DNA of 58,717 nt from a virus, in IMG/VR virus record IMGVR_UViG_3300045988_156049, one strand, 5' to 3'. Shown here one piece after another: positions 2,028 to 24,034 of the stretch (positions are counted from its first letter, which is position 1; each line of letters starts with the position of its first letter). The translations under genes were made by a program, and so were the position numbers. The notes beneath the pieces were generated by a model, which was given only the letters and a program-made list of their open reading frames with translations, did no database searches and had not been told where the DNA came from.

Positions 2028-2084
2028 ATTTGAAAAAAATACTACTACGTAATTACATAAACCTTTCATGCAAATATACTTATT

Positions 2085-2092: not shown

Positions 2093-2132
2093 AACCACTT
2101 AATTAAGTATTAACTATTAAATATCAATAATT

Positions 2133-2633: not shown

Positions 2634-2644
2634 TTCGTTTAGAA

Positions 2645-3988: not shown

Positions 3989-3991
3989 ATT

Positions 3992-6900
3992 ATGCCAAAA
4001 TATAGAGTAAACGGAGATACTTATAATATTCCAGAAGAAAAGGTATCTGCATTTGAAAAGCGGTATCCCAACGCAACAGTCGATATATACGATAATGACG
4101 GGGCTGAGTATTCACTTCCCGTTTCCGAAAAGGTGAATTTTCAGAAGCAGTTTAAGAATTGGTCATATACTGCTCCGGCAGCTCCTTCCGCTCCTAGTGC
4201 CGAGAAGATTGACTCAGTGGAACAGCCGGGGCCTGTCATGCCGAATCCGGCCATGGAAAACAGGAACTGGGAGGTACAGATGGGGAACGGCCACAGCCGT
4301 GCGACCGTGGAAAAGCCTGAACCTGTTGATGTGCCCATTCCGCAGAGACCTGAAGGCCTGGAACCGTCTGATGATGGGACCGCGGCTCCTTCTGGTGATG
4401 TGAGGTCATATCTGGAGAATGCCAACAGGCAGCAGGTAGCCAACCTCAGCAGGGACATCAACTCACGACTGGATGAGGCGCAGACGAAATCCCGTGACAT
4501 ATATATGAAGGAACAGGAAGACGCACGCAAAGGTGGATTCCTGTCGACACTTGCACATGCCATTGCCGCGTCCGGCCATAATCCTGAAGGCGGGTCCGGA
4601 GGCATGTCCGATGCCCAGCAGAGGACACTTCAGGGCGCGAACAGCGAACTCCAGAGCGAAATATCCAAACTGGAGGCTGCAAAGAATGCGATGAGCAATG
4701 CCGAAGAGATTATAGCCGAGGCAGACAAGAGTGTCCAGGAAGGCAAATTCCCCGGCTTTTTCAAAGGCGTAGCACGCGGCTTCGGAGACAAGCTGTTTGA
4801 CGTCAACACGTGGGACATGGGAGTGTCAGACACGAAGAACAGCATCGAACTGCTTAAGGCCCTCAGGAAGTACGATGAGGGAAAGCCGCTTTCGGAATCC
4901 GAGCAGATGCTACTGGACGCGAAGTCGGTGGAACTCGCCACGAATGCCTACTTCGGTTCATACATAGGCAGGGGATACAAGGCGGGAGCCGTGACGGCAC
5001 AGAGCCTGCCGTTCATGTTGGAGATGGCGGTCAACCCGGCTTCCACGCTTGGAGAGTCCACACAGAGCATGCTGGCCAGATATGCGCTGTCGAGGTTTGC
5101 GAAGAAAGGAGCGACCAGAGCAGCCCAGAAGTTCGCGACAAAGGCTGCAGGGGCTGCAGGACGCGCCTTGGGTGACATAGCCGGTTCCGCTGTCATGGCA
5201 GGGACATCCGGCGCTGTCCGTGTGGCCGGTGACGCCATCGACAGGCATGTCGGTGACATCGAGACTGATATGGACGGACAGGGGCAGACCGTATTTGCAG
5301 GCCATGACCCAGAAAGCCTCGGGAAATCGATTGCAAAGGCATTCACGTCAACTGCAATAGAGAACCATTCCGAGATGCTGGGCGAATACTTCGCTCCGGC
5401 TCTCGGAATCGTCTCTAAGCTCGGCAGGAAGGGCATGGAGAAGTTCGGCCTGAAGAATGTCGTGGATTTCGTTGACGATGTCAGTGCGACTGACGCCGCC
5501 AAACTCATAGCGGATTTCCAGAAGCGCACGAAGTGGCACGGAACCATCGGAGAGTATGCGGAAGAGGTCGCAGGCAACATTGAGAATGCCATTCTCGTTG
5601 GAGATAGCACGTTGGATTCATCGGACGATACGGGAGTTTTCAACCTGGACCAGAATATTGATACTTTTCTTGGAGTGGCGTTGATGGGCGGAGTCTTCAG
5701 TACAATTCGTACGGCTGCATGGCGAACGCCAAAGTACAGAGCAAGGAAAGAAATGGAGAAAGCGAGGGCTAAGGCGAAAAAGAAATTCGGCGATCAGGAA
5801 TGGCAGGATATAGAGGACAGGCTTGCGGAGGCCGGCGATGAAGGAATGTCATCGGTCCTGTCGGAGGTGATCATCGGGGAAAGGAATCCTGAAAGAGAAA
5901 AGGCTATTCTGGATTATGCAAAAAGTATCAAGATTTACGAAGGTACGTTAAAAGGAGATGAAAAGCATAGGGAATTATCAAGCCCTGAAATGACGGATTT
6001 GGAGTCTTCTTATGAAAATGGATATACCTTAGCGACACCGCAGGAAGTTCATGATGCGAAAATAATGTTTGAATATCAGCAAGCAAGGCTTCAGCAGGCG
6101 TTGGGTATGTCAAGCATCGACATTGAAACGTTGATGCTTGGAAATGAGATGGGGAAACTTACGGAAGAACAGAAGTCTGTCGCATTGGATTATTTGAATG
6201 CAGAAGCGACGTTCGATGGCGTCATTGACAGAGTCAGAGATGATATTGACAATAGAATCTCATCCGTAAATGCAGCCATTGATGCCAGCACGAACAGTGA
6301 TACTGGAAAACTGCAACCGGCCAGACTTGTTGATGACAGAGCAGTTCATATTATTTCCGGTGTAGTCAGGCTCACGCCTGATGGAACAATGGTTGACATC
6401 CATAATTCGGAGGACTATATAATCATTCGTGATGACAAGACTGGAAAAATTGAATCCGTTTCTCCGTCTCAAATTGTAGGAGTTGACGCTGAAATAGATC
6501 CTGAATCAGAAAAGAAAGCGGCGGAGTCGCAGATTCGTGGACAAATTGGACAGCAGAAAGCAGACATTATTGATGGTGTGCTCCAGTTTAATCCTGGAGA
6601 TGTATATACTTTGACGAATGAGCAGGGGCAGTCATTCACGGTTCAGGTTGCAGCAGACGAACAGGGCGTTGTCGATAATGGAGATGGGACAATAAATGTT
6701 ATACTTAATGAAGATATTGATGCCAATACCGGCCTCCCTCGTATTTCTCAAATGTCTAAGGAGCAGATTGAAAATATGGCTGAAGCCACGAATATGGCAA
6801 GACTGCAACAATATGAGCAACAGAAGTTGGATGTTGACGCTCGTCAATATGAGGAAGACAGTACAGGACGGACTCCTGAGAATCCTTTCAAAATTAACGA

Positions 6901-9900
6901 CCGGATTTCATTTAATGATGTCGGGTCTGGTTCCGTCAAGCATGGAATTGTAGAGTCGGAACTTACGGATGATGGGAAATATGAGATAGCAATCGAGAAT
7001 GACGGCAGCATCGAATCCGTATCGTACCTTTCTCCGGAGGATCTGTCGAATATGCAGGCCCAACTTGTTCAGTCCGTGGAGGAACAAGAAGCACCTGAAA
7101 TCGAACAGAATCCTGTCAAAATCGAACAGAATCCTGTCAAAATCGAACAACCGGAGCAACCGCAGGTGTCCGCTTTCGAGCGTATTCCTAAAGATGAGCA
7201 GGGAAATCCTATCTATGAGCAGGCTGAAACTCCCGACCTCGCTTGGGATGCCATAGTTGAACAGACAGATGGCGATGAAGCAATGGCGCAGACCGTAACG
7301 GACGGAATGGTTGCCGACAAGGAAACAGCGTTGAAAAAGGTAGAGAAAGCCAAATCCAAAGGAGGGGCGACCATTGCGGAGAAGATTGCAGCCGAGAAAG
7401 AGCGTAAGGCTGCCATTGAAGAAGCAAAGGCTAATCTTGCCGTGTGGAAGCGGATTGCGCAAACCGCAAGGCGCAGGAAAGATGCAGAGGAGTCCGAAAA
7501 GAGACGGATCGCAGAGGAACAGGCAGCCATACGCAAGGCCGAGGAAGAAAAACTCCGTGCAGAGCGCGAGGAAGCAGAGCGCATCAAGCGTGAAGCCTTG
7601 AACGGTGTGCCGGACATTTCCGATGATACACCGCAGGACGCACGAGCAAGAGGTTACAGGAGAGTAAGCGGTCATAAGGTGGATAGACAAGAACCTATAC
7701 CACACCTGCAGGGCAACGATATAGCCGTGAAATTCAGCGATGATGTCATTGTTCCCGGTCGTGTCGCTGTCATTGAAGCGGAGACCTTGCAGCCGAGCCA
7801 CATCCAAGGCACGAGAAATCCTGCCCACTTCATTGATGAATCGCAGCCGAAAGAGAGGACTGACGATGCGAGTGTATTGTCTGCCCGTAAGATTGCCAGA
7901 AACATCCGTCCCGAAGAAATCACATCCTCAATTACGGCATATACCGGTGCGCCTACCACAAATGTCCGTGGCGAAGTCATACAGGGCAACAACCGTAGTG
8001 ATGCGCTCCGTTTGATATGGGAGGGCGATAAAGAGCAGTCTGCCATTTACAAGCAGTACCTTATGGACCACGCTGCGGACTTCGGTCTGAATGCCGATGA
8101 GATTTCAGCGATGAATCATCCTGTACTCGTCAATATGCTTGATGTGGACGACGCAAAAGCCATTACCCTCGGTCAGTTTGTTGCGCAGGACACCGAAAGC
8201 GGAGGTACAGAGCGTATCAAGCCGAAGAATGCCGTGCAGAAAATGGGAGCCGATATGCGCACATTCGCCGATATGCTTCTCGCTTCTTCTGATGATGAGA
8301 CCTCTTTTGCAGGACTTGTGGACAGGAATGGCGATGAAGTATTGGCGTGGATGAACAGGCGTGGTTTCATCACTCCTACGCAGTACAAGAGCGCATTTGA
8401 CAGTAAGGGAGGTATCACAGCTGAAGCGAAGAACGATTTGAAAGGCATAATGTATCAGAGCATATTCACAGGTGGCAACATCCGTCTTGAAGAAATGTTC
8501 AATGCTATGCCGGCCAAAGCTCAGCGTGCTATCCTTGCCACCGCATTCAGAGACAATGAAAGTCCGAACACAGAGCGAATGGTAAAGGAAATTCAGAATT
8601 CTATCAGAGCGTACAACGCATTGTCGCAGGGCGAAGACTTTGCCAACGCCAAGAATTGGAAAGAAGCTCGTTTAGCCGTTGAATCGTGGAAAATGCAGTA
8701 TGCAATGGACGATGTTACCGGAGAAAGCTATCTGCCTGCCGAGAAATTCAGTAATTTTGCATTACATTTGGCGACAATGTATAAAGGCGAAAGTCAGAGC
8801 CTGATACAATCTACATTTAACCACCTGTATGACCTCATCCAAGGCACCCAGGAAGAAACTCTGTTCGAGAAGCCGGACAACACTCCGAGAACACTCGCAC
8901 AGGCTATTTTAGAAACATTAAATTTTGAATATGATGGACAGCAGCGAAGCAATGTATTGGCTGGCGATAGTACAGCAAGCCAAGAAAGGGAACAAGGAAG
9001 CACAGGAACTCCTGCAGCAGGAGAACGAGTTGAGGGTGGAGAGCAACCTGCCGATAATACAGGAGGAACTGAAAACGAAAGCGGAAGCGGTGAAGTAAGA
9101 GAAAAAATCGCAGAGGAAGGAAGCAAGGTCAATACAAACCCAAGCGATGCTCAGAAAGAAGCGGGCAACTATCGCATGGGGCATGTCAAGATTGACGGAA
9201 TGGATGTCACCATCGAGAATCCTAAGGGAAGTATACGCAAAGGAAGAGATGCTGACGGCAAGGAATGGCAATCAGAAATGCACAATGACTATGGTTATAT
9301 CCGTGGCACGAAGGCCGTGGATAACGACCACATTGATATATTCCTCTCAGATGATCCTGAACATGGTAACGTATACGTAATCGACCAGGTAGACCCAAAA
9401 ACCGGAAAATTTGACGAGTCCAAGGTAATGTATGGTTTTTCTTCCGAGCAGGAAGCCAGAGATGCGTATCTTTCCAACTACGAGGAAGGTTGGAAAGGTC
9501 TCGGCAAGATTACTGAAGTGACCAAGGAAGAGTTCAAGAAATGGATTGACTCTTCCACGCGAAAGACAAAGCCGTTTTCTGAATATGCAAGCGTGAAAGC
9601 TGCTAAGCCTCAGAAGGAGAAACCTGTTCAAGGGATTGAAGGCTATTCGCGTGATGAGATTAAAGGCATTGTGGCAGATCATATCAACGATGTGATGAGA
9701 GACAACGATATTCACGCAGAAATAATCGGCATGGATATCCATGGCTCCAGGAATCGTCATGACGCTAGACCAGACTCGGATCTGGATGTTGTAGTCGAGT
9801 ATCGTGGAGATATCAGGGAAGACGACATGTTCAATGCGCTTAACGGTGAAGAGGATGCGCTTTCGATTAATGGGATTAAGGTCGATATCAATCCTATAAG

Positions 9901-12900
9901 AAAAGAGGAAACCGGCGACCTTCAGGGCTATATGAAGCAGTCGGAAGAGTATGATAGGGAAAAATCAGAACATGCAAAACAAAAAGGATCTTCAACAACT
10001 TCGGAGATAAAGAACAATAAATCAGGGAAGATTGAGGACTATGGTGAACAGATTTCTGGTGCTCGAAAGGATATGCTGCGTGACCTTGCCAAGTCAGTTC
10101 AAAACACTTCGCTTGAAAGCCTGATATCCCTGCCATTCTCAAAAGCCTTCAAGAAGCCGAATCTCAGTAAGGCGGTTGAAGAAGGCGCTCTTCGTGATAA
10201 GGACGCACGATTCGCTCAGGCAGCCATTGCTGCATTCCTTTCCACGAAAAAGCCTGTGGCAGGGACAAAGGACGAAAGAAGGAGACAGCGTTGGGGCGAG
10301 AAGACAAACGTGGAGAAATGGGCCGAAAAGGCTTATACTGGCATAAAGATACTCCAGGAACTATTCGATGCTGACGAGCGTGTAAGAGACAAGGTAATAG
10401 AGGCGGCTGTTGCTGACAAATATGTAGGCGTCGCTGAAGCGAAAGCCCAGCAGCAGAGGATTGGAGAATTGAATCACAGGGAGTTTAACGGCACAAGTTA
10501 TCCTCTCAACCTCATTGCGTTGTATAACGAGGTCTTTGACAGGCTCGGCTATCCGGCCGGTCAGAATACAAAGATTCCGGTAGGTAGAATCGTATGCAGC
10601 AGCACGTTTGACTCTTACAGCCTGCGTGGTGTCAATGGAGAAGACTGGATTTATCCTTCCCGCAGTCTGAAGTCATTCGAGGATGTCGTGGATGAACTGG
10701 TTTACCTTATTAAAGTTGCAAATGCCGATGAAACGGCAGACCATCCTATTGAGAACTTTAAAATTAGAGGAATCAATCCGAAGGTGGAGACAACAGGATA
10801 TCGGGTTCTTGCGGCAAAGAACCTCACCACGGCAATAACGAGGGGCAATCGATTTGCCGTGGATGAAATATTCCCTACGAGAGAAGCTGCCCTTAAACGA
10901 ATTGAGGAATTGAAGGCCAAGGGGCTTGAATGTTCCGAGCCGCTGGAGAAGAGGGAAACAGTCGGATATGAGAAATACCAAATCAGCTTTGCACATCCTA
11001 TCACAAGAGAGTTTATTCCTTTGGAGAAGGAGTATGGCTCTAAAGAGGATGCTATTGCTGCTCCGGAAGCAGAGCATGAGGAATTGAACCGCCTTGCAAA
11101 CGAAGCGATTGCGGCAGCGACCAAGAAGAGTGGTGAAAGTGTGGAGAAGTCATATTTCCACATAACCCACTATTACGACAAGGGCTCCGATGGAAAGTAT
11201 CATTGGTATTATGGTGTTGCACTGGATGACAAGTATGGGCCGAAGAAGACAGCGTTCAATACAATGCCGTTCTTCCTTGCCGAGCGTCTGAATAGTCGCG
11301 AGGAAGCCCAGAAGCAGATAGATGCGAACAAGGAAAGGTGGGAGAGCCTCGTAAAGGACGTTGTGCGCCAGAGAAGCAACTTCGTGTACTTCTCCGGAGA
11401 CAATGAGACCCGCAATGGCGAAGACTACAGGAACGGGAAGGATGTCACCGCCGAGGAGTTTGCCAACAAATTCGGATTTAGAGGTGTCCAGTTCGGAAAC
11501 TGGGCAAATCAGGCAGACAGACAGGCTGCGCTGAACAATGCCTACGATTCTTTCATGGACATGTCTAAGATCATTGGTGTATCTCCTAAAGCCATGAGCT
11601 TGAATGGAGAGCTTGGCGTTGCCTTCGGTTCGAGAGGAAGTGGCGCTGCGTCCGCCCACTATGAGCCGGGCGAAGTGGTCATCAACCTTACCAAGACAAG
11701 AGGGGCAGGCTCACTTGCACACGAATGGTGGCATGCCCTGGACAACTATTTCAGTCGCGCCGCAAATGTAAAACTGGGCTATGTCACTTCCGACAAGAGA
11801 CTTCCTATGCGCGAAGAGATGAGAAAGGCTTTCAATGATCTTGTCGATGACGTTGAAAAGTCTGATTATCATACGAGGTCAATGGATAAAGGCTCAAGTT
11901 ATTGGGGAACACGAGAAGAGGAAACAGCCCGTTTATTTGCAGAATGGATTGCAGATGAGATGGCTAAACGCGGAGAACTCAACAACTTTCTTGCAGGCCG
12001 TTATGATGCGGAAGACAGTTATGCCAGAATGGGATATGTCTTCTATAAAGCTATCCAGAAGCTAAAGCCTGAAGGCGAGATGATGACATTCGAAGAGTTT
12101 AGGAAAACGCCGATGGCATTGAAAGGGTTCTCGTATCCGACACGTGCGGAACTGGAGATTCTCGGAAAGGATGTCCGTAATATCTTTGGAGAGGTGCAGG
12201 AACGTACCGATGAAACGACAGGAAATGTTGCGTTGTTCCAGATGGTTGACAAAATTCTCTCTGACAATTCGCCAGAGAACCGACTTGCGTATGAAGCCGT
12301 ATCTCAGATGCTGTCAAATGCAGGAATCCCTGTGGAGTTACTGTCGGATCAGGCGATGAGAGAAATGGCTATAAATGCAACAATGCTTGATACCGTGCTA
12401 CCGGAAGACGAGTCTTCTTTCAAAGGCACTGTTATATCAAGCATTGACGGTGCAAAGATACTCAATAATCTTGATAAAGCAATAGATAGATACAATGAGA
12501 ATCCAGACAACAGGCCTTGGACATTTATTGGAGACCTGGCTTCTGCATTAGGTTCTTCAGATAAAGACAAGAGTAGCCAGTATGCGACGTTCGAAACAAA
12601 GAACGGGCAGGTGGTCACTATACGTGTGAGCAACCATAATGCTACCGTATCCAACTTCGACAACGCCGGGGAATCCAACGGCATCAGCATCGTGATCTCC
12701 AGAAAGCCGAATGAGGGCATGACGAATGATGGAGATGCGCACATCGTCGAGTTCTTCTATCCTGACAAGGCGCTGAACAAAGCGGAGGGCAAGCCGCTTG
12801 TGGAGATTTTGAAGTCTATCAAGCAGTCTCTCTATAGTGGAGAATACAAGGACACCACTGGTCTTGCACAGCGCGAGGAAGTCAATGCTAAAGAATCTGT

Positions 12901-15900
12901 CGAATTCCTGCGTGAGCCTGACGGAACGGTATATGGTGCAACAGTGGGAGGAAAGATTTATCTCAATCGAGAGCGTCTGAATCCGAACACTCCAATCCAC
13001 GAATACACCCACTTGTGGTTCTCCGCATTGAAAGACGCAAACCCTGAACTTTACAAAAGAGGCGTTGAACTGATGAAGCAGCTGCCTATATGGGAGGAAG
13101 TCAAAACGGATTCGAATTATGCAAACCTTTCTGGTGATGATGCGATAGCAAGTGAATGTCTTTCCCGTCTCGTCGGTGACAAGGGGACGGAAAAGCTTAC
13201 AGAGCTGGCCAAAAAGGCAATGGTGCGTGGCGACATCATCGGTACGGCAAACAGGATCTCGCTCATCGAGGACTTCAAGGACTGGCTGAAAAAGTTCTGG
13301 ACTTGGGTAAGGGATTCATTTGCTCCATGGACGAAGGAAGAGGCTTCAAGGGTATCAGTGGACAATATCCAGAACATGGTGCTTTCTGACTTGGCAAAGG
13401 GCGTAAATCCGCTTGCTCGCCAGGCGGAAAGTGATGCGGATATCCGTTTCTCGATAGTCAAAGATCCGAAACTGATTGAGGAACTTGACAAGGGAGCGAA
13501 AGTGAAGGTATATCGCGCGATGCAACTTATAGACGGAAAACTGTATCCGCCTATGGCCTCGAAGATAAATGGAGAGTTCGTGCGGCCGATAGAATTGGGT
13601 AAATGGGAACAGGCAGATGAACACCCTGAACTTATTGATAAGAATGGACGTTTCAATCTCAATAAAGGGAACGGAAAGGGCCTTAAAGCTGCATACAACC
13701 CGTATATCCATACATCTAGAACGCCATTGAATGACCAGTTCAGCGAAGCCCAAAGTCGTCCGAACATTGTGACTGTAGAGGTCGAAATCCCAAAGAGCGA
13801 ATTGAGTAGCGGATATCAGGCGGATAAGGCTAAAGATTCTGTTGGCGAGATGGAGTGGAAAGCTGGTATCGTTCAGGGACAGCTGACGGGCAAGCGCAAA
13901 GTGATTCTTTCCAGATGGGACAAGCCGATACGCATAGTTCCGGATAGTGAAGTTGCAAACGTTATAGTCAATGATATGTTCAAGGGTAGAACCATAACCA
14001 TGCCATCTAATGTCGTGACTCCAAGCCTGAGAGCGGAACTGGAAAAGCTGGGAGTGCCATTCGTCCAAACCGATAATACCGGACATATTGTGGGGGGACA
14101 ATATGACGGGAAGTATTATTCTAAAGTCTATGGTAACGGGGCTTTGGCAGGAAATGCCAAGGGCAAGCGTATGGAGTCGGAGACAGATAGGATTGTACGG
14201 GAGGCTAAAGAAAACGGCACGTATATGAAGGCGCCAAACGGAAAGCCGACAAACCTTAATGAAAGGCAGTGGGCCCAAGTCCGTACCCGTGCATTCAAGA
14301 AGTGGTTTGGCGACTGGGAGAAGGCCGCGGAGGAATCTCCTTCAACTGCCAAAACAAATTCGTCCAAGATTGTGGATGAGAACGGAGAGCCTAAGGTGGT
14401 GTATCATGGTTCGCCTTATAGGTTCTTCAGGTTCGACAAGACTAAATTGGGACAGTCTACAGGTGCCGATTCGGCGAAAGAAGGCTTCTTCTTTACCGAC
14501 AATAAGGAGCTTGCGGAACTGTTCTCCAGATATTCTCTTGAAAGCCTTCCTGTAAGCGATGTGGAACAACTGGTGAAGGACAGGCTTCTGAATATGTCCG
14601 AAAATGAGTTGAATGATGCGTATGAGGTGTATAGGAATGACAGCCCTGACTATTTGGACTACGCGGATGAGACAGACTCTCCTAACGATAGAGACTATCT
14701 TGAAATTCGCGGATTCCTTCTTGATGGTGTCTCTGAGGAGGAATCTAAGAGGGAATATATTCAGGATTCAATTGAAAGTAAGATTGAGGGAGGTTATTTC
14801 AGCGACATGGAAGAGGTCGAGGAAGAGTTGTCCTCAATCGGTATAGAGTTCGGGAACAATGAGCAAGTGTTCCTGAATATCGAATCACCGTTAGTCGATG
14901 AAGTCGAACGAGATTATTTCCATAATGGAGAAGACGTGTCTCCGATGACCCCGGTCCTGCAGAATGCAAAGCGGATGGGGAGTGATGGCGTAGTCTTTAC
15001 AGGTATAGTTGAAAGCGGACAGAAAGGCGCCGCTAATCAGTACGTAGCATTTGAGCCGAATCAGATCAAGTCCGCAACTGACAATGTCGGAACGTTTGAC
15101 GTCGGGCAGGAGGATATCCGATACAGAGATTCCGGACAGATGGACGCCGAATATATGTTCGCAATTGAATCCGGAGACATGCGCAAGGCCGGCAGAATGG
15201 TGGAAGCTGCATTCAGGAAAGCATTCCCAGGTAGTAAGGTAAAGAACGTCGTATATCATGGCGTGGCCGTGTCTGAAGACGGAAGGCAGTTCCCGTACAA
15301 TTCAATTCGTGAGGGGCATTTTACGGACGATGAGGGCTTCGCTGAATACTATGCAGGGTCTGACGGTTATGTCTATAAGGTATTCCTTGATATCGAGAGC
15401 CCTTTGGAACAGGACTTCAGAGGACAGAACTCGGACTTCGCGAGGGATGCTGAGGGAAACGATGTCTCTACCAGGACATTTGCGAGACGTGTGAAGGATA
15501 GCAACGGAAGATACGACGGTGCAATAATCACGAATGTTGATGAGTATGGAGACGGAATTGAGGCTGACGGCGTAGGCAATTACGATGGTTCAGTCACTGA
15601 CTACATACCGGTGAGTGCCGACCAGATTTATTCGGCCGAACCAGTTGTATATGATGACAACGGACAGGTAATTCCATTGAGCAGAAGGTTTGAGAATGGG
15701 AATCCTGACATCAGATATAAACACGATGAGACTGGAAATGGCAGCCGCACTTCTCAGGATGTCGAAGCAGCCGCAATTAAACTGGCGGAAAGCCTCGGTG
15801 AGAAGGTGCGACTCGTACGGGATGTTAATGAGATTGAGAACCAGAACAAGAAGGTTCAGGAGAACCAAAGGAAATCCAAGGGCTGGTTCAATACCGGAAC

Positions 15901-18900
15901 CGGAGAAATCGTCGTCGTCCTTCCGAATGCAACCGGCATTGAAGATGTCCAGGCTACAATCCTGCACGAGGCTGTGGGACACAAGGGCTTGCGTGAACTC
16001 GTGGGAGATGACAGATTCGATGACTTCCTGGACAAGGTGTATGCGGCTGCGTCAGTAAACACCAGAAGAGAGATTGTCAATCTCGCCAGGCGGAGTCATT
16101 GGGATTTCAGACTTGCAACAGAAGAGTATATTGCAGGCTTGGCGGAGAATGGTTTTGCCGGGCGTGAGAATCGTACATTGTTCGAGAAGATAAAAGACTT
16201 CTTCCGCGATATGTTGAGCAGGGCAAAGATTGCCCTGGGCGTCAATATCGGGGACAATGAACTGCGCTATATGCTGTGGCGGACATATCAAATGCGGACC
16301 TCGCGCGGCATTCTTGCCAAAGCCGAAGATATATCCATGCAACAGTCAATGAAGGTCGGAAACTTCAGGAATGAGGTCCCCGAAGAATCCTCAAGACTCC
16401 GCTTCCGGAATTCTAGTAATGGAAGACGTAAAAGCTTGGCACGTGATATCTACGAAGAGAAGACTCGCATAGTGGACAGGAAAGGGCAAAAGACTGATAC
16501 CGCAAATCTTATGCGCCGTCTGAAGGAGGCCTATGTGGACAGTATGCAGTCTCTGAAATACTTGCAGGATGCGGTTGCGGAAGAAACCGGGAAGCCTGTG
16601 GAAGACTTCGAGAACGCATACCTGGCGGAAAACACAATGAGTTCTAAGAATAAGGCTCAGACAGACATCTATCTGAACAAGTTCTTTAATCCGATAAAGG
16701 ATGCAATACGTGAACTGCAAAAAAAAAGTGTCGAATATAATGACATCGTGCGTTACCTCATGGCTAAACATGGACTTGAACGCAATGTGGTCTTCTCGAA
16801 GCGGGATGCGCAGAGAGCGGGTGCTGTGTGGGACGGCATTGTGAGACGTGATTACTCTGGTTTGACGGAACTTACCAGACAGGAAAGCGACACTTCTACT
16901 CCAAGTATTCGAGAGATTACTTCCCGAGCAAATGAAATAGTGCATAATTTCGAAAAAGAATATTACGTTGATGAACTTTGGAGTGCAATCAATAATGCTA
17001 CAAAGGAAACACTCAGGACGTCGTATGTTGATGGATTGCTCACAAAGGATAATTATGAGATGGTTCGTTCGATGTTTGACTATTATATTCCGCTCCGTGG
17101 CTGGAATGAAAATGTTGCTTCTGTAGAATATGATTACCTGAGCGATTCAAAGCCTAAGACCTCGCAAATCGTAAAGGCGGCTACCGGAAGAACCACCATT
17201 TCCGATGATCCGATAGCAACTATCGCATATATGGGACAGAGCGCAATCATTCAAGGTAACAGAAATATGATGAAGCAGAAACTGTTGAATCTTGCGTTGA
17301 ACCATAAGACAGGTTTGCTCACTGTGAATCGTCAGTGGGAGGTCCAGGACCCGGTAACTGGCGAATGGATTACGAGGAATCCTGTCATACCTGTAGACGC
17401 GACGCCGGAAGAAGTTGCTGATATAGTTTCCCAGTTTGAGACTGACATGAAGGCGGCGGAAAAGAATGGGACGGCTCGCATATCTCGTGGGAAACTCGAT
17501 ACCGGTAAACATATTACGGCATATGAGGGACAAGAACATGTCGTCAAAGTTAAGCGCGGCGGCATAGAGTATTGCATATATCTCAATGGAAATCCGCGTG
17601 CTGCTCAGGCTGTCAATGGCATGACCAATCCTGATGCTGTGGACAGCTGGCTTATCCGTAAGGCTCGTGTTATTAAGAACTTTATGGCCAGGATGTTCAC
17701 TTCCCAAAATCCAGCCTTCATTATTTCAAACCTCAGTCGTGATGTGATATTTGCGGGTACTGCTGTGTTTGCAAAAGAGGATTCAAAATATACTGCTCTA
17801 TATACGAAGAATATTGCCAGGGCATTGGCGAAAGGGCAATTGATCGGCCTGGTGCACAGATTCGAGACAGGCAGACTTGATGACTCCAAAGACATTGACA
17901 GATATTTCGGAGAGTTCATACGCAATGGCGGAGAAACAGGTTTCACACAACTCAATACCGTCGATGATTTCAAGCGAGACCTTAACAGGTTTGCGAAAGA
18001 GATGACGCAAGGACAAGTGATGAAAGTTTCTTCAAAAGTGTGGAACGGAATCTGGGATGGTGTTGAGTTCATGAATAGGTGTGCCGAGGATGCGACAAGG
18101 TTTTCGGTGTACATGACATCTCGACAGATGGGACGTAGTGTGGAGAGGAGTATCAGTGATGCTAAAGAGATTACGGTAAACTTCAATAGAAAAGGTAGTG
18201 GCGGTTTTGGTGCACGAGTTATGAACTTTGCCTATATCTTCTTTAATGCGGCTATACAGGCTCTTGCAAACGCAGGAAAGATTTTCTACGAGCATCCGGT
18301 TAAATCTGCCGTGGCTCTTAGTACTTTCTCTGTCGCAGGATTTCTTGCTCCACTTCTGGCACAAGCTATTATATCGGCATTCGGTGGTGATGACGATGCC
18401 TATTGGGATTTGCCTGAGTGGGTTCGTAGAAATAATTTTGTTTTCTATGTCCCATGGAGTGACAATAAGTTCCTGATTATACCGATATCCCAAGAATTAC
18501 GTCCGTTCTACGCTCTTGGAGAGGTGGCAATGTCTGTGTTGATGGGAAAAGAAGATGTCCTCGAAGGATTAAGGAGTGTAGGCGGTAGCTTTATGGATCT
18601 TCTCCCTGTTGATTTTATGGGCAATGGAAATAATCTTGCCGTAAGTTTGACTCCGACTGTCGCTCAGCCGTTTGCGCAATTGGTAGCAAACTCTGATTAC
18701 TTTGGAAAACCAATTTATAGACGCAATGACTATAATCGGTTGGATCCAGCCTGGACGAAGGCATACAAGGGGACGAGTTCAATGCTTATCAATGCATCTA
18801 AATGGCTGAATGAAGTAACCGGAGGAGACGATGTCAAGAGAGGATGGATTGATCCTGTTAACAATCCTGCCGTCATTGAACATTTGTTTGAGAGTTATCT

Positions 18901-19345
18901 GGGCGGTGTCGGAAAGACCATTAACAAGACGGCCAAAACTATTTCGATGATATGGAATCCGGAAATGCGCGATATCCGTAATGTGCCTATCGTAAGCACG
19001 TTCGTTCAAGAATCAGACGATGAGAGAGTCGCCGGCAGTCAATTGAATCGTGAGTATGGTAAAGCAATGGAAGAATTCCGAGAAACAGAACATACGATTT
19101 CTGGATATAAGAGAAAGGCAAGGATGGGCTCGATGGAATATGCTGATAAACTATCTGATTTCATGAATACTCCTGAATTCAAGAAGTATTCGAAGATGAA
19201 AGGATATGCATCGTCTATCGCGAAATTGAGGACGGCACTGAAGAAAACGGAAGAACTCAATGGGGATGTGATGGATGCGGAATACTTGCAGGAGATGCTT
19301 CGGGAATTGAAACAGCAGATGTTGGAGGAACTGAAAGAAGATTAG
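3992..19345 (+). CDS. Giant polyvalent multi-domain protein (5117 aa), probable virion-packaged and injected effector/ejection protein
   Basis: Uninterrupted 15,354-nt ORF with an ATG start. It holds a serial array of enzyme-like motifs (ParB-like GNNR, PPase-like, MNT, HEWWH and HEYTH zincins, two VVYHG ART-like modules) and a C-terminal module with two TM helices. It is flanked by internal-protein candidates and the portal. Confidence 0.9.
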   Translation: MPKYRVNGDTYNIPEEKVSAFEKRYPNATVDIYDNDGAEYSLPVSEKVNFQKQFKNWSYTAPAAPSAPSAEKIDSVEQPGPVMPNPAMENRNWEVQMGNGHSRATVEKPEPVDVPIPQRPEGLEPSDDGTAAPSGDVRSYLENANRQQVANLSRDINSRLDEAQTKSRDIYMKEQEDARKGGFLSTLAHAIAASGHNPEGGSGGMSDAQQRTLQGANSELQSEISKLEAAKNAMSNAEEIIAEADKSVQEGKFPGFFKGVARGFGDKLFDVNTWDMGVSDTKNSIELLKALRKYDEGKPLSESEQMLLDAKSVELATNAYFGSYIGRGYKAGAVTAQSLPFMLEMAVNPASTLGESTQSMLARYALSRFAKKGATRAAQKFATKAAGAAGRALGDIAGSAVMAGTSGAVRVAGDAIDRHVGDIETDMDGQGQTVFAGHDPESLGKSIAKAFTSTAIENHSEMLGEYFAPALGIVSKLGRKGMEKFGLKNVVDFVDDVSATDAAKLIADFQKRTKWHGTIGEYAEEVAGNIENAILVGDSTLDSSDDTGVFNLDQNIDTFLGVALMGGVFSTIRTAAWRTPKYRARKEMEKARAKAKKKFGDQEWQDIEDRLAEAGDEGMSSVLSEVIIGERNPEREKAILDYAKSIKIYEGTLKGDEKHRELSSPEMTDLESSYENGYTLATPQEVHDAKIMFEYQQARLQQALGMSSIDIETLMLGNEMGKLTEEQKSVALDYLNAEATFDGVIDRVRDDIDNRISSVNAAIDASTNSDTGKLQPARLVDDRAVHIISGVVRLTPDGTMVDIHNSEDYIIIRDDKTGKIESVSPSQIVGVDAEIDPESEKKAAESQIRGQIGQQKADIIDGVLQFNPGDVYTLTNEQGQSFTVQVAADEQGVVDNGDGTINVILNEDIDANTGLPRISQMSKEQIENMAEATNMARLQQYEQQKLDVDARQYEEDSTGRTPENPFKINDRISFNDVGSGSVKHGIVESELTDDGKYEIAIENDGSIESVSYLSPEDLSNMQAQLVQSVEEQEAPEIEQNPVKIEQNPVKIEQPEQPQVSAFERIPKDEQGNPIYEQAETPDLAWDAIVEQTDGDEAMAQTVTDGMVADKETALKKVEKAKSKGGATIAEKIAAEKERKAAIEEAKANLAVWKRIAQTARRRKDAEESEKRRIAEEQAAIRKAEEEKLRAEREEAERIKREALNGVPDISDDTPQDARARGYRRVSGHKVDRQEPIPHLQGNDIAVKFSDDVIVPGRVAVIEAETLQPSHIQGTRNPAHFIDESQPKERTDDASVLSARKIARNIRPEEITSSITAYTGAPTTNVRGEVIQGNNRSDALRLIWEGDKEQSAIYKQYLMDHAADFGLNADEISAMNHPVLVNMLDVDDAKAITLGQFVAQDTESGGTERIKPKNAVQKMGADMRTFADMLLASSDDETSFAGLVDRNGDEVLAWMNRRGFITPTQYKSAFDSKGGITAEAKNDLKGIMYQSIFTGGNIRLEEMFNAMPAKAQRAILATAFRDNESPNTERMVKEIQNSIRAYNALSQGEDFANAKNWKEARLAVESWKMQYAMDDVTGESYLPAEKFSNFALHLATMYKGESQSLIQSTFNHLYDLIQGTQEETLFEKPDNTPRTLAQAILETLNFEYDGQQRSNVLAGDSTASQEREQGSTGTPAAGERVEGGEQPADNTGGTENESGSGEVREKIAEEGSKVNTNPSDAQKEAGNYRMGHVKIDGMDVTIENPKGSIRKGRDADGKEWQSEMHNDYGYIRGTKAVDNDHIDIFLSDDPEHGNVYVIDQVDPKTGKFDESKVMYGFSSEQEARDAYLSNYEEGWKGLGKITEVTKEEFKKWIDSSTRKTKPFSEYASVKAAKPQKEKPVQGIEGYSRDEIKGIVADHINDVMRDNDIHAEIIGMDIHGSRNRHDARPDSDLDVVVEYRGDIREDDMFNALNGEEDALSINGIKVDINPIRKEETGDLQGYMKQSEEYDREKSEHAKQKGSSTTSEIKNNKSGKIEDYGEQISGARKDMLRDLAKSVQNTSLESLISLPFSKAFKKPNLSKAVEEGALRDKDARFAQAAIAAFLSTKKPVAGTKDERRRQRWGEKTNVEKWAEKAYTGIKILQELFDADERVRDKVIEAAVADKYVGVAEAKAQQQRIGELNHREFNGTSYPLNLIALYNEVFDRLGYPAGQNTKIPVGRIVCSSTFDSYSLRGVNGEDWIYPSRSLKSFEDVVDELVYLIKVANADETADHPIENFKIRGINPKVETTGYRVLAAKNLTTAITRGNRFAVDEIFPTREAALKRIEELKAKGLECSEPLEKRETVGYEKYQISFAHPITREFIPLEKEYGSKEDAIAAPEAEHEELNRLANEAIAAATKKSGESVEKSYFHITHYYDKGSDGKYHWYYGVALDDKYGPKKTAFNTMPFFLAERLNSREEAQKQIDANKERWESLVKDVVRQRSNFVYFSGDNETRNGEDYRNGKDVTAEEFANKFGFRGVQFGNWANQADRQAALNNAYDSFMDMSKIIGVSPKAMSLNGELGVAFGSRGSGAASAHYEPGEVVINLTKTRGAGSLAHEWWHALDNYFSRAANVKLGYVTSDKRLPMREEMRKAFNDLVDDVEKSDYHTRSMDKGSSYWGTREEETARLFAEWIADEMAKRGELNNFLAGRYDAEDSYARMGYVFYKAIQKLKPEGEMMTFEEFRKTPMALKGFSYPTRAELEILGKDVRNIFGEVQERTDETTGNVALFQMVDKILSDNSPENRLAYEAVSQMLSNAGIPVELLSDQAMREMAINATMLDTVLPEDESSFKGTVISSIDGAKILNNLDKAIDRYNENPDNRPWTFIGDLASALGSSDKDKSSQYATFETKNGQVVTIRVSNHNATVSNFDNAGESNGISIVISRKPNEGMTNDGDAHIVEFFYPDKALNKAEGKPLVEILKSIKQSLYSGEYKDTTGLAQREEVNAKESVEFLREPDGTVYGATVGGKIYLNRERLNPNTPIHEYTHLWFSALKDANPELYKRGVELMKQLPIWEEVKTDSNYANLSGDDAIASECLSRLVGDKGTEKLTELAKKAMVRGDIIGTANRISLIEDFKDWLKKFWTWVRDSFAPWTKEEASRVSVDNIQNMVLSDLAKGVNPLARQAESDADIRFSIVKDPKLIEELDKGAKVKVYRAMQLIDGKLYPPMASKINGEFVRPIELGKWEQADEHPELIDKNGRFNLNKGNGKGLKAAYNPYIHTSRTPLNDQFSEAQSRPNIVTVEVEIPKSELSSGYQADKAKDSVGEMEWKAGIVQGQLTGKRKVILSRWDKPIRIVPDSEVANVIVNDMFKGRTITMPSNVVTPSLRAELEKLGVPFVQTDNTGHIVGGQYDGKYYSKVYGNGALAGNAKGKRMESETDRIVREAKENGTYMKAPNGKPTNLNERQWAQVRTRAFKKWFGDWEKAAEESPSTAKTNSSKIVDENGEPKVVYHGSPYRFFRFDKTKLGQSTGADSAKEGFFFTDNKELAELFSRYSLESLPVSDVEQLVKDRLLNMSENELNDAYEVYRNDSPDYLDYADETDSPNDRDYLEIRGFLLDGVSEEESKREYIQDSIESKIEGGYFSDMEEVEEELSSIGIEFGNNEQVFLNIESPLVDEVERDYFHNGEDVSPMTPVLQNAKRMGSDGVVFTGIVESGQKGAANQYVAFEPNQIKSATDNVGTFDVGQEDIRYRDSGQMDAEYMFAIESGDMRKAGRMVEAAFRKAFPGSKVKNVVYHGVAVSEDGRQFPYNSIREGHFTDDEGFAEYYAGSDGYVYKVFLDIESPLEQDFRGQNSDFARDAEGNDVSTRTFARRVKDSNGRYDGAIITNVDEYGDGIEADGVGNYDGSVTDYIPVSADQIYSAEPVVYDDNGQVIPLSRRFENGNPDIRYKHDETGNGSRTSQDVEAAAIKLAESLGEKVRLVRDVNEIENQNKKVQENQRKSKGWFNTGTGEIVVVLPNATGIEDVQATILHEAVGHKGLRELVGDDRFDDFLDKVYAAASVNTRREIVNLARRSHWDFRLATEEYIAGLAENGFAGRENRTLFEKIKDFFRDMLSRAKIALGVNIGDNELRYMLWRTYQMRTSRGILAKAEDISMQQSMKVGNFRNEVPEESSRLRFRNSSNGRRKSLARDIYEEKTRIVDRKGQKTDTANLMRRLKEAYVDSMQSLKYLQDAVAEETGKPVEDFENAYLAENTMSSKNKAQTDIYLNKFFNPIKDAIRELQKKSVEYNDIVRYLMAKHGLERNVVFSKRDAQRAGAVWDGIVRRDYSGLTELTRQESDTSTPSIREITSRANEIVHNFEKEYYVDELWSAINNATKETLRTSYVDGLLTKDNYEMVRSMFDYYIPLRGWNENVASVEYDYLSDSKPKTSQIVKAATGRTTISDDPIATIAYMGQSAIIQGNRNMMKQKLLNLALNHKTGLLTVNRQWEVQDPVTGEWITRNPVIPVDATPEEVADIVSQFETDMKAAEKNGTARISRGKLDTGKHITAYEGQEHVVKVKRGGIEYCIYLNGNPRAAQAVNGMTNPDAVDSWLIRKARVIKNFMARMFTSQNPAFIISNLSRDVIFAGTAVFAKEDSKYTALYTKNIARALAKGQLIGLVHRFETGRLDDSKDIDRYFGEFIRNGGETGFTQLNTVDDFKRDLNRFAKEMTQGQVMKVSSKVWNGIWDGVEFMNRCAEDATRFSVYMTSRQMGRSVERSISDAKEITVNFNRKGSGGFGARVMNFAYIFFNAAIQALANAGKIFYEHPVKSAVALSTFSVAGFLAPLLAQAIISAFGGDDDAYWDLPEWVRRNNFVFYVPWSDNKFLIIPISQELRPFYALGEVAMSVLMGKEDVLEGLRSVGGSFMDLLPVDFMGNGNNLAVSLTPTVAQPFAQLVANSDYFGKPIYRRNDYNRLDPAWTKAYKGTSSMLINASKWLNEVTGGDDVKRGWIDPVNNPAVIEHLFESYLGGVGKTINKTAKTISMIWNPEMRDIRNVPIVSTFVQESDDERVAGSQLNREYGKAMEEFRETEHTISGYKRKARMGSMEYADKLSDFMNTPEFKKYSKMKGYASSIAKLRTALKKTEELNGDVMDAEYLQEMLRELKQQMLEELKED
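7098..7149 (+). repeat. 21-bp in-frame tandem repeat (about 2.5 copies) in a linker of the giant protein
   Basis: AAATCGAACAGAATCCTGTCA occurs at 7098-7118 and 7119-7139, with a partial copy to 7149. It encodes (E)IEQNPVK IEQNPVK IEQ. Confidence 0.9.
7740..8130 (+). other. ParB/Srx-like domain within the giant protein
   Basis: VIEAETLQPSH ... TNVRGEVIQGNNRSDALRLIW. The GNNR motif sits at about 7984-7995 and resembles the ParB-fold G-x-x-R phosphate-binding motif. Confidence 0.4.
9160..9560 (+). other. Family-I inorganic-pyrophosphatase-like domain within the giant protein
   Basis: VTIENPKGSIRKGRDADGKEW...HNDYGYIRGTKAVDNDHIDIFLSDD parallels the PPase pattern E-x-P-K-G-S..K-Y-E ... Y-G-F-I-P-x-T..D-G-D-P-x-D-V. 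Confidence 0.6.
9640..9915 (+). other. Minimal nucleotidyltransferase (MNT, pol-beta superfamily) domain within the giant protein
   Basis: IIGMDIHGSRNRHDARPDSDLDVVVEY fits the hG[GS]-x9-13-D-h-D-h signature. Confidence 0.7.
11440..11990 (+). other. Zincin-like metallopeptidase module 1 (HEWWH) within the giant protein
   Basis: FGFRGVQFGNWANQADRQAALNNAYDSFMDM...AHYEPGEVVINLTKTRGAGSLAHEWWHALDNYF. HExxH is at 11720-11734. It resembles the MPTase module recurrent in polyvalent proteins. Confidence 0.6.
12910..13100 (+). other. Zincin-like module 2 (HEYTH) within the giant protein
   Basis: GGKIYLNRERLNPNTPIHEYTHLWFSAL. HExxH is at 12998-13012. Confidence 0.45.
14390..15125 (+). other. ADP-ribosyltransferase-like module 1 (polyvalent-protein ART type) with a large acidic insert
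   Basis: PKVVYHGSPYRFFRFDK...KEGFFFTDNKELAELFS ... QVFLNIESPL ... NQYVAFEPNQIKSATDNVGTFD. Confidence 0.45.
15235..15720 (+). other. ADP-ribosyltransferase-like module 2 (tandem paralogue of module 1)
   Basis: VKNVVYHGVAVSEDG...EGHFTDDEGFAEYYAG...YVYKVFLDIESPLEQDF...DGAIITNVDEYG...ADQIYSAEP. It shows the same YHG / F(T) / (F)L(N/D)IESPL landmarks as module 1. Confidence 0.45.
15890..16150 (+). other. Conserved HEAVGH module within the giant protein (function unknown)
   Basis: NTGTGEIVVVLPNATGIEDVQATILHEAVGHKGLRELVG. The spacing is H-E-x3-H, so it is not a canonical HExxH. Confidence 0.3.
16380..19345 (+). other. C-terminal approx. 1000-aa module of the giant protein with a hydrophobic helix pair (about 18221-18385)
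   Basis: MNFAYIFFNAAIQALANAG and AVALSTFSVAGFLAPLLAQAIISAFGG are TM-like helices. YIPLRGW (about 17086-17106) is reminiscent of the PLxRFG-type C-terminal module reported for polyvalent proteins. Confidence 0.4.
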
Positions 19346-24033: not shown

Positions 24034-24034
24034 G

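Follow-up and report, generated by a model that had tools for sequence, protein, structure and literature searches.

A predicted three-part polyvalent protein of 5117 residues, encoded beside the portal gene of a temperate Bacteroidales gut phage

Polyvalent proteins combine 2 to 15 unrelated effector or catalytic domains in one chain (Iyer et al. 2017). The prediction made in 2017 was that they act as multi-tool weapons injected into the host, and very few of them have been tested. The concept, which the protein described here would share with DarB and DdrB of phage P1, is that of proteins that are packaged in the head, injected and shield the incoming DNA (Iyer et al. 2017). Virion data exist for two relatives. 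Gp69 of Burkholderia phage JC1 (4515 aa, Bcep22-like and labelled 'DarB-like') was detected with 51 unique peptides in CsCl-purified virions, and its gene makes up 22% of the genome (PMC9144972). Gp47 of the Stx phage phi24B (vb_24B_48, 2807 aa, with 933W-type relatives) was found in the virion proteome and is missing from the cryo-EM map; its authors propose that it is an ejection protein that forms a trans-periplasmic conduit. In phage PTXU04, knock-down of the polyvalent protein strongly lowered the plating efficiency (PMC11879866). Coliphage N4 offers an analogous layout in its vRNAP, gp50 (3500 aa), which has an N-terminal injection region, a catalytic middle and a C-terminal part of about 1400 aa with an HExxH module that is needed for encapsidation.

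Giant genes that are syntenic with the one studied here are present in three cultured temperate phages of Bacteroides: BS-TP4 (gp3, 5391 aa, PQ571277), BKO1-TP3 (gp55, 5553 aa, PQ571269) and BF1-TP2 (gp68, 3633 aa, PQ571263). Two small genes precede the giant gene in all three phages, and the portal gene comes directly next in BS-TP4 and BKO1-TP3. In the available portions of the paper on these cultured phages (Gut Microbes 2025; PMC12694917), the giant proteins are not discussed.

The window, by which we mean the whole stretch of DNA analysed (58,717 nt), has no ambiguous bases and begins and ends with the same 119 nt, a perfect direct repeat (1-119 = 58599-58717), so that it represents a circle of 58,598 bp. 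The genome carries integrase, terminase-like and capsid genes, and its source is a temperate Bacteroidales gut phage; a megablast search of positions 1-25000 against cultured phages found no match. The giant gene (3992..19345, on the plus strand like all other features given below) is a single open frame that starts at an ATG and has its lone stop at its end. The product has 5117 aa, a mass of 571.6 kDa and a pI of 5.1. By our own estimate, with about 4.7% stop codons, the chance of 5117 codons without a stop is about e^-245. An initial annotation of the sequence had described an unbroken, ATG-initiated 15.35-kb frame of 5117 aa that takes up about a quarter of the genome; translation confirms the frame, and its share of the 58,598 bp is 26.2%. 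The emphasis that was placed on this size and share is not borne out, since the syntenic genes of BS-TP4 and BKO1-TP3 encode even longer products and the JC1 gene takes up a similar fraction of its genome.

As had been annotated, the gene lies between two small genes and the portal gene; all are co-directional and closely spaced. The two upstream genes (2133-2633 and 2645-3988; 166 and 447 aa), which the initial annotation took for candidate internal virion proteins, are conserved and syntenic in the Bacteroides phages but have no PHROG or Pfam match, and the second one ends 3 nt 5' of the giant gene's ATG. The portal gene (19433..21427; phrog_156, E 1.8e-90) lies 88 nt downstream, and its product has weak matches to solved portal chains. 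This arrangement differs from that of JC1, where the giant gene is at the far end of the structural module, and from that of phi24B, where it is at the end of the late region, away from the portal.

Eight Pfam families, in nine domain instances because ART-PolyVal is present twice, score above their curated cut-offs in the Pfam search, polyvalent families included, that the initial annotation had proposed as a check. The motifs that it listed are all in place (GNNR at aa 1332, HEWWH at 2577, HEYTH at 3003, YHG at 3471 and 3755, HEAVGH at 3992). Its assignment to the polyvalent proteins in the sense of Iyer et al. (2017) also holds: Pfam families derived from that study are above cut-off, several unrelated domains are joined in one chain, and the phage gene lies beside virion and packaging genes. 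The 2017 study lists InPase, DdrB-ParB and LPD38 as found in phages only and the pol-beta nucleotidyltransferase as found in conjugative elements only. All three phage-type domains are present here, and the presence of the nucleotidyltransferase is a small departure. The giant gene is real, and its product is a well-supported polyvalent protein; proteins of this kind are known and common, and neither in size nor otherwise does this one stand alone. By our own sum about 77% of its length is without a Pfam match, so that the annotated 'at least half' that matches nothing nameable was right in pointing to a large unmatched share but was an underestimate. Nine segments without earlier matches yielded nothing credible in Pfam at E<=5, and a phmmer search of both protein halves against PDB sequences found a single match, a portal-fused pyrophosphatase.

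The N-terminal part (aa 1-1709; 3992..9118) is 43-45% identical to the proteins of BS-TP4 and BKO1-TP3 (BLASTP), and in the alignment its conservation peaks at aa ~255-580. Among cultured phages, matches to the core at aa 251-587 are confined to Bacteroides phages, and a profile search of the N-terminal part against the PDB gave no match. Two Pfam domains are found within it, LPD14 (aa 454-577; 5351..5722; PF18827, E 4.9e-26, 91.8 bits against a cut-off of 27) and a ParB domain of the type found in phage P1 DdrB (aa 1250-1382; 7739..8137; PF18763, E 1.7e-22), which contains the GNNR motif. These are followed by a family-I inorganic pyrophosphatase-like domain (InPase, aa 1719-1852; 9146..9547; PF18823, E 2.2e-58), which covers positions 1-134 of the 135 in the profile and has the acidic metal-binding signature DNDHID at aa 1777. 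The InPase is the domain that matches the PDB: its counterpart is the last 130 residues of a portal chain from phage Pa193 (9b41_L, E 5.6e-27, phmmer). The C-termini of portal proteins face the interior of the head. As far as the alignments indicate, the whole N-terminal part to aa 1874, with LPD14, DdrB-ParB and InPase, is specific to this lineage of Bacteroidales phages.

The middle of the protein begins with a minimal nucleotidyltransferase of the pol-beta type (aa 1911-1974; 9722..9913), whose match to Pfam NTP_transf_2 is marginal (E 6.3e-5, 23.7 against 21 bits). The Polbeta family scores 23.0 bits on this domain, under its cut-off of 26.9. The motif G[SG]-x(7-15)-D-x-[DE] is present as GSRNRHDARPDSDLD at aa 1918 (GS...DSDLD). 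For aa 1975-2425 a tblastn search against phages found no match. A block then consists of LPD5 (aa 2426-2492), the HEWWH module (aa ~2507-2659) and LPD1 (aa 2633-2735), together at 11267..12196, with Pfam matches for LPD5 and LPD1; the block matches phrog_616 (E 2.4e-51). It is followed by an alpha+beta domain (aa ~2818-2966; 12443..12889; AF2 pLDDT mostly 80-90) that ends in ...LYSGEYKDTTGLAQREEVN, is conserved in many homologues and has no Pfam match. We refer to it as the framing domain. The HEYTH module (aa ~2960-3143; 12869..13420) is next, and then a module of 235 aa (aa 3147-3381; 13430..14134) with neither a Pfam match nor a match in cultured phages.

A short conserved segment (aa 3382-3456, ...WFGDWE; 14135..14359) precedes the two ART domains and is also present in proteins of crAss-like phages and in proteins annotated as DarB-like or as methyltransferases. 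When aa 3110-3460 were compared with phages by tblastn, the matches were limited to the last ~60 residues (query residues 284-347). Both copies of ART-PolyVal, an ADP-ribosyltransferase (ART) domain, belong to the Tox-ART-HYD2 clade, are above the PF18760 cut-off and have the strand-1 His in YHG. Copy 1 (aa 3462-3702; 14375..15097; E 3.4e-23, 83.4 bits) is divided by an acidic insert and matches in two stretches, and copy 2 (aa 3753-3882; 15248..15637) has E 4.1e-9 and 37.8 bits against the cut-off of 31.2. Self-BLAST of the protein found no internal repeats, and the two ART copies do not match each other.

Two modules (HEWWH and HEYTH) had been annotated as HExxH zincins and a third as an HEAVGH module, and by motif and predicted topology all three may be called zincin-like. 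In the zincins of polyvalent proteins the HExxH or HExxxH helix comes after a sheet of three strands, and a Glu lies downstream on a later helix. The motifs and the predicted order of strands and helices agree with this in all three modules. In the HEWWH module, AF2 predicts a helix, three strands and the HExxH helix, with a His at a strand end (AHYE) and an Asp three residues past the motif (HEWWHALD); a strand-end His and an Asp three residues after the motif are also part of the zincin description of Iyer et al. (2017). In the HEYTH module strands precede the HExxH helix, and strands likewise precede the motif helix in the HEAVGH (HExxxH) module (aa ~3938-4035; 15803..16096), whose family consensus is TxxHExVxHxGL...ATEEY. 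However, HMM, profile-profile and Foldseek comparisons do not back the assignment. None of the three modules has a Pfam match even at E<=5, and none has a match in a profile search of the PDB. A multi-domain model of aa 2400-3120 reached a best E of 1.5 against the PDB in Foldseek, with neurolysin, ERAP2 and ArdC zincins among the non-significant hits. That the three modules form one family is not demonstrable, as hhalign gave probabilities below 2% between them. A SprT-like identity of the HEYTH module, suggested by the homologue P0157, was rejected because the SprT/DUF6782 match of that protein (residues 533-599) is outside the aligned region.

The conserved C-terminal module (aa 3933-5117; 15788..19342) is 35% identical to the three Bacteroides phage proteins and is almost wholly helical, and its widely shared core is at aa ~4280-5115. 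It contains LPD38 (aa 4801-5001; 18392..18994; PF18857, E 1.3e-35), and the feature set of the LPD38-type family, a helical module of ~850-1200 aa with LPD38 at the extreme C-terminus, is present. Just ahead of LPD38 is a conserved hydrophobic helix (aa 4775-4797; 18314..18382; mean Kyte-Doolittle hydropathy, KD, 1.70). Its position is conserved: in each of 40 aligned homologues the 19-aa window of highest hydropathy falls on this helix, and the KD is at least 1.5 in 37 of the 40. Of the 'TM helix pair' in the initial annotation, then, one member is clearly hydrophobic, but the other, which precedes it, is amphipathic (KD 0.65).

With the C-terminal module as a single-sequence query, phmmer found 7,790 cluster representatives at E<=1e-3, and the module is always C-terminal. 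Among the best 150 of the 7,790 matches, about 47 are at least 5000 aa long and the longest has 7236 aa. Its upstream partners vary and include PBECR, MuF_C, kinase, ART, DNA methylase, RadC, SprT and helicase domains. Structural matches to the module in BFVD have TM scores of 0.45-0.62. They include fusions to lytic transglycosylases, as in known ejection proteins, and the PTXU04 polyvalent protein, which shares the C-terminal fold (E 1.6e-25). Searches of the PDB by sequence and by profile found no match to the module, and the best Foldseek hit of its multi-domain model in the PDB had E 0.09 at a TM of 0.07. Judged by these sequence matches, the C-terminal module is what stays constant across a very large family of phage proteins.

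The same module links the protein to both phages with virion data. It is shared with JC1 gp69 (tblastn, 24% identity over 88% of the module, E 2e-42) and with phi24B gp47 (24% identity, E 3e-42, BLASTP), which also has the LPD5/HEWWH/LPD1 block (39% identity, E 6e-48, BLASTP). Otherwise the proteins differ. Gp47 is half the size and has no ParB, InPase, nucleotidyltransferase or ART matches to our protein, and gp69 has lytic transglycosylase, methylase and helicase regions (PMC9144972), none of which is present here. P1 DarB is defined by an N6-adenine methyltransferase and an SNF2/DExH helicase; no methylase or helicase family was found by Pfam anywhere in the present protein, whereas BS-TP4 and BKO1-TP3 have both. 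The match to phrog_10089 ('DarB-like') comes from two places only, the region of the InPase and the C-terminal module. Unlike N4 gp50, our protein has no RNA polymerase domain. Homology to the C-terminal 1400 aa of the N4 vRNAP was rejected (hhalign probability 0.6%, E 0.09, with the HExxH neighbourhood alone aligned), and the analogy in mode of action is kept.

The pattern of conservation among relatives divides the protein further. All three Bacteroides phages share with it the InPase and, at 34-35% identity, the C-terminal module. Only aa 1-1709, the InPase and aa 3933-5117 can be aligned to BS-TP4 and BKO1-TP3; the middle cannot. The load in the middle is a methylase and an Sno/SNF2 helicase in BS-TP4 and BKO1-TP3, and an ART and PBECR5 in BF1-TP2. 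What sets relatives at 92-97% identity apart is entire modules, exchanged at two fixed junctions. One of these, slot A (aa 2966-2970; 12887..12901), is empty in our protein, whereas inserts of ~180-270 aa (ART-like, PBECR3 or other) are present in relatives at exactly this place; for example, relative L004 has a 184-aa ART-like insert at aa 2966/2970, and many further homologues have inserts at the same EEVN/EFLR junction. The other, slot B, holds the 235-aa module, with the conserved segment before the ARTs as its right-hand edge. In relative P0264, which is 92-95% identical, a 499-aa cassette of MuF_C, LPD23 and an HEIQH motif replaces aa 3147-3381. By these comparisons the protein has three parts: the N-terminal part (aa 1-1874), a swappable middle (aa ~1900-3930) and the constant C-terminal part (aa 3933-5117).

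We consider it probable, at roughly 0.65, that this is a polyvalent ejection protein packaged in the virion, with the constant C-terminal module, the lineage-specific N-terminus and a swappable effector middle as its parts. Packaging is favoured by the detection in purified virions of JC1 gp69 and phi24B gp47, which have this C-terminal module too. The module would carry the functions that every family member needs: getting the protein into the head close to the portal and, once the phage has adsorbed, passage through the tail and insertion into the host envelope. The giant protein would enter the cell with or ahead of the DNA, and the three zincin-like modules may cut it into separate enzymes. 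Points against this reading are that a 572-kDa chain has to be unfolded, or cleaved beforehand, to go through a narrow channel, that the giant genes of JC1 and phi24B are not beside the portal, and that neither the presumed peptidases nor the C-terminal module gave a significant match to a solved structure. The middle would be the effector load, made up of the nucleotidyltransferase beside the pyrophosphatase, LPD5/HEWWH/LPD1, the HEYTH module, the 235-aa module and two ARTs of the H-Y-D type. Once freed, these enzymes might modify host proteins or nucleotides, and so blunt defence and take over the cell.

The alternative that survives best, although we think it unlikely, is that the protein is an essential component of an ejection channel that extends a short tail across the Bacteroides envelope, and that its enzymes act on the wall or membrane or in the capsid rather than on defences. 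The conserved hydrophobic helix and the lytic transglycosylase fusions in the family agree with such a role, as does the conduit proposed for gp47 by the phi24B authors, and a short tail is hinted at by a weak SU10-adaptor match (E 0.004, below cut-off). Even on a laboratory host PTXU04 needs its homologue for plating, and such essentiality is explained by a structural or ejection function at least as well as by one against defences. However, Foldseek of the C-terminal model found no fold similarity to solved ejection proteins, and the middle of the protein is freely exchanged between near-identical phages, which would be expected of accessory weapons and not of a channel. Furthermore, the substrates of ART, ParB, nucleotidyltransferase and pyrophosphatase domains (NAD+, DNA and NTPs) are cytoplasmic.

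It is more improbable still that the protein stays unpackaged and works late, as a multi-enzyme in the cytoplasm of the producing cell, where it would modify the phage's DNA or proteins, or that it serves to protect the lysogen. The JGI name, simply 'predicted nucleotidyltransferase', would suit such an enzyme. Yet homologues with the same C-terminal module are in the purified virions of two unrelated phages, the gene is in the head-gene cluster beside the portal, and in Pa193 an InPase is fused to the portal chain itself. Finally, that assembly created the long frame, or that it joins genes which the real phage keeps apart, can be dismissed as most improbable: the gene is split into 867 and ~4480 aa in relatives L004 and L005, and L002 and L003 give a 1804-aa product before the contig ends, but the L004 split comes from one TA unit lost from a (TA)3 run and leaves the two halves intact in all other respects, orthologues are intact in the cultured phages BS-TP4 and BKO1-TP3, and a chimera or hidden frameshift is disfavoured because the identical 5117-aa sequence is present on 30 independent contigs in a public collection (the longest of 118 kb) and the frame is kept across many kilobases in the 92-97% identical relatives.

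A more tentative suggestion concerns how the load of the protein changes. The protein may be an 'effector train' whose middle is rebuilt by recombination at fixed junction motifs (EEVN | EFLR at aa 2966/2970, and aa 3146/3382), each next to a zincin-like module, so that near-identical gut phages would differ only in their injected weapons. The C-terminal ~850-1200 aa would then be a widespread device, so far undescribed, by which very large proteins are packaged and ejected. We regard this as possible rather than likely. If it is true, the junctions could double as cut sites between the enzymes.

Database names such as 'predicted nucleotidyltransferase' and 'DarB-like antirestriction' cover only a small part of such proteins. 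The protein described here raises the questions of how a chain above 500 kDa can be packed and ejected, of whether zincin-like modules cut it up, and of what host defences or targets are acted on by the ARTs, the nucleotidyltransferase-pyrophosphatase pair and the ParB domain. A lineage that has cultured relatives, and in which a constant C-terminus can be set against an enzyme load that is exchanged module by module, is a practical system for work on these questions.

The gene at 3992-19345 (plus strand) stands in the ORF list as one reading frame, and its translation gives an ATG-initiated protein of 5117 aa whose sole stop is the terminal one, just as the initial annotation had proposed. 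The motifs named there are also in place: GNNR at aa 1332, HEWWH at 2577, HEYTH at 3003, YHG at 3471 and 3755 and HEAVGH at 3992. The window ends share a perfect 119-nt direct repeat (1-119 = 58599-58717) that is probably an assembler overlap rather than a biological terminal repeat; therefore, the contig is circular with 58,598 bp, of which the giant gene makes up 26.2%.

A chimeric assembly can for practical purposes be excluded, because the identical 5117-aa sequence is recorded on 30 contigs (JGI/IMG and ENA; the longest is 118 kb), near-identical relatives exist and the orthologues in cultured phages are intact. The JGI name for the identical protein is 'predicted nucleotidyltransferase'. 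Some metagenomic relatives carry variants. For example, in L004 and L005 (97.5% identical) the gene is broken into 867 and about 4480 aa (L004 12541-12606; about 6590 in the window) by the absence of one TA unit from a (TA)3 run, both halves being otherwise intact; the loss may stem from a genuine mutation, from slippage or from an error in sequencing. In L002 (10001-15415) and L003 (2031-7445), from two samples, the product ends at 1804 aa and has LPD14, PBECR2 and InPase. Since both contigs terminate no more than 130 nt beyond this stop, these ends suggest assembly breaks from strain variation in the giant gene. The GC content of the gene is 0.46-0.53 compared with 0.42-0.44 in the adjoining integrase and portal regions, and the genome is a mosaic in composition (0.36 at 30-32 kb, 0.55 at 51-54 kb). 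A perfect 21-nt tandem duplication at 7098-7139 inside the gene encodes NPVKIEQ twice in an acidic, proline-rich linker.

Nine domain instances in the whole protein pass the curated Pfam cut-offs, and they bear out the ParB-like, pyrophosphatase-like, nucleotidyltransferase and two ART-like modules first read from the sequence. They are LPD14 (aa 454-577, E 4.9e-26), ddrB-ParB (1250-1382, E 1.7e-22), InPase (1719-1852, E 2.2e-58), NTP_transf_2 (1911-1974, E 6.3e-5, marginal at 23.7 bits against a cut-off of 21), LPD5 (2426-2492, E 2.5e-6), LPD1 (2633-2735, E 9.4e-7), two copies of ART-PolyVal (3462-3702, E 3.4e-23, and 3753-3882, E 4.1e-9) and LPD38 (4801-5001, E 1.3e-35). Both enzyme signatures occur, DNDHID for the pyrophosphatase and GS-x11-DSD for the nucleotidyltransferase. 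The polyvalent-protein study of Iyer et al. is the source of most of these families. The matches cover about 23% of the chain, and nine other segments have no Pfam match, even at E<=5. A short conserved segment ahead of the first ART (14135-14359, aa 3382-3456), ending in WFGDWE, also occurs elsewhere: crAss-like phages have it in proteins named 'RNAP associated protein fused to zincin protease', and phages of Shewanella, Pseudoalteromonas and Bacillus have it in proteins whose annotation reads DarB-like or methyltransferase. At the extreme N-terminus (3992-4170, aa 1-60) the translation contains, by eye, two similar motifs of about 25 aa, DTYNIPEEKVSAFEKRYPNA and AEYSLPVSEKVNFQKQFKNW, a possible targeting signal.

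Three modules are presumed peptidases. In AlphaFold models built from homologue alignments (aa 2400-3120, pLDDT 79; aa 3930-5117, pLDDT 75), the HEWWH, HEYTH and HEAVGH helices each follow short strands and precede further helices, which is the order given by Iyer et al. for zincin-like peptidases. The HEWWH module also has AHYE at a strand end and HEWWHALD, the two extra residues of their common phage clade, and the HEAVGH module is of their HExxxH type. The motif positions and predicted topology thus agree with the zincins originally proposed; however, the modules have no Pfam match, Foldseek with both whole models returned nothing significant, PDB profile searches with these regions were empty and the modules have no significant similarity to one another. 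Because motif and topology fit but all of the statistical tests were negative, we call them no more than zincin-like.

Three cultured temperate Bacteroides phages have syntenic giant genes: BS-TP4 (gp3, 5391 aa), BKO1-TP3 (gp55, 5553 aa) and BF1-TP2 (gp68, 3633 aa). In BLASTP against BS-TP4 and BKO1-TP3, aa 1-1709 align at 43-45% identity and aa 3933-5117 at 34-35%, the InPase region aligns as well, and nothing aligns from about aa 1900 to 3930. The middle in these two phages has a methylase-like region and a Sno/SNF2 helicase, and that of BF1-TP2 has an ART and PBECR5. Therefore, by its alignments, the protein has an N-terminal part specific to the lineage, a middle that varies and a C-terminal module (aa 3933-5117) that stays constant.

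With this module as query, an exhaustive phmmer search returned 7,790 cluster representatives at E<=1e-3, of which 3,262 reach E<=1e-30. Most of the best 150 have a length of 3000-7236 aa and end with the module, and about 47 of the 150 have at least 5000 aa. In homologues, the domains upstream of it include PBECR, MuF_C, kinase, ART, DNA methylase, RadC, SprT and helicase. The modeled module is helical almost throughout and matches no PDB fold; its BFVD hits (TM 0.45-0.62) are C-terminal fragments from many giant proteins of phages, among them Ralstonia phage Alix and E. coli phage PTXU04, and some of these proteins are fused to lytic transglycosylase or RelA/SpoT. Of the transmembrane helix pair suggested earlier, one helix holds: at aa 4775-4797 (mean Kyte-Doolittle hydropathy 1.70) each of the 40 aligned homologues has its most hydrophobic 19-residue window, with varying sequence, but the preceding helix is only amphipathic (0.65).

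The variable middle has two swap junctions, both adjoining the HEYTH module. Slot A (aa 2966/2970) is empty in the window's phage; in L004 it holds a 184-aa YHG-type ART/DUF3990-like insert with exact borders (GLAQREEVNAK on the left, EFLREPDG on the right), and many remoter homologues have inserts of about 180-270 aa there. In the homologue P0149 the insert contains PBECR3 by a Pfam scan; for the others, precomputed domain lists name ART-PolyVal, LPD23 or MuF_C, which may lie in the insert. At slot B, the relative P0264 (5365 aa, 92-95% identical) exchanges aa 3147-3381 for a 499-aa cassette with MuF_C, LPD23 and a HEIQH motif.

The contig is that of a temperate phage: the integrase gene occupies 297-1619, the portal gene 19433-21427 (phrog_156, E 1.8e-90) and the capsid gene 25889-27313, and a terminase-like gene with weak PHROG terminase matches lies on the minus strand at 21910-24060. 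Toward the integrase end are a PD-(D/E)XK nuclease-FtsK/HerA-type ATPase fusion (51063-53078), RecT (53082-53981), an M48-family peptidase (55997-57064) and a PIN-domain protein (57310-57738). A stretch of low GC (0.36-0.39) encodes two proteins (30492-31883 and 31962-33617) with N-terminal BACON domains, as is typical for Bacteroidales and the phages that infect them. Related prophages are located in Bacteroidales, Rikenellaceae and Bacteroides genomes. A 447-aa gene stops 3 nt before the giant gene, which ends 88 nt upstream of the portal gene; the two genes upstream have no PHROG or Pfam family match and keep their position in the cultured Bacteroides phages. The terminase-like gene overlaps at its start with the gene of a 166-aa rhomboid-domain membrane protein (24035-24535, minus strand, Pfam E 1.5e-5), a layout also annotated in BS-TP4, BKO1-TP3 and BF1-TP2. 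Counterparts of the terminase-like gene in the GenBank records of these three Bacteroides phages are labelled 'tail spike protein', probably a mis-annotation; the records' own structure notes say terminase.

Several relatives have been studied experimentally. Phage phi24B gp47 (vb_24B_48, 2807 aa) has the LPD5/HEWWH/LPD1 block in common with the giant protein (E 6e-48), and likewise the C-terminal module (E 3e-42); it is in the virion proteome, was unseen in the cryo-EM map and is proposed by its authors to be an ejection protein (bioRxiv 10.64898/2026.04.10.717836). In JC1, gp69 (4515 aa) takes up 22% of the genome; it has the same C-terminal module, and 51 unique peptides identified it in virions purified on CsCl (PMC9144972). 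Efficient plating of PTXU04 needs its polyvalent protein (PMC11879866). The last 130 residues of the Pseudomonas phage Pa193 portal chain (9b41_L), which have no description in the map, match the InPase domain (E 5.6e-27).

On the features tested, the sequence is that of a phage-type polyvalent protein, the architecture first claimed for it. A strict DarB-like identity is rejected, as the protein lacks both methylase and helicase; PHROG's 'DarB-like' match depends solely on the InPase region and the C-terminal module. The N4 virion RNA polymerase has a similar layout, and a comparison gives no support for homology of the C-terminal parts. The pol-beta nucleotidyltransferase, listed in the 2017 paper as restricted to conjugative elements, would be a small departure, its score being marginal.

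For packaging, ejection, cleavage and targets in the window's phage, we infer the following as most likely. The constant module would pack the protein into the head; at infection the protein would exit via the tail, the hydrophobic helix would enter the host envelope, and the lineage-specific N-terminal part and changeable enzyme set would be delivered into the cell. The zincin-like modules might divide the chain into individual enzymes. The pyrophosphatase adjoins the nucleotidyltransferase, which fits the idea of Iyer et al. that InPase clears PPi made by nucleotidyltransferases. The ARTs are of the H-Y-D clade, predicted to modify host proteins. The 572-kDa chain has a computed volume of about 690 nm3; at about 0.5 bp per nm3, our own rough estimate, the packed DNA of equal volume amounts to only some hundreds of base pairs, so several copies would fit.

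In conclusion, the finding is real and its earlier interpretation correct, and the protein belongs to a known kind, within which its size, genome share and general architecture are ordinary. Of the details that are new, the conservation pattern in three parts and the two exactly placed swap junctions are the most useful.
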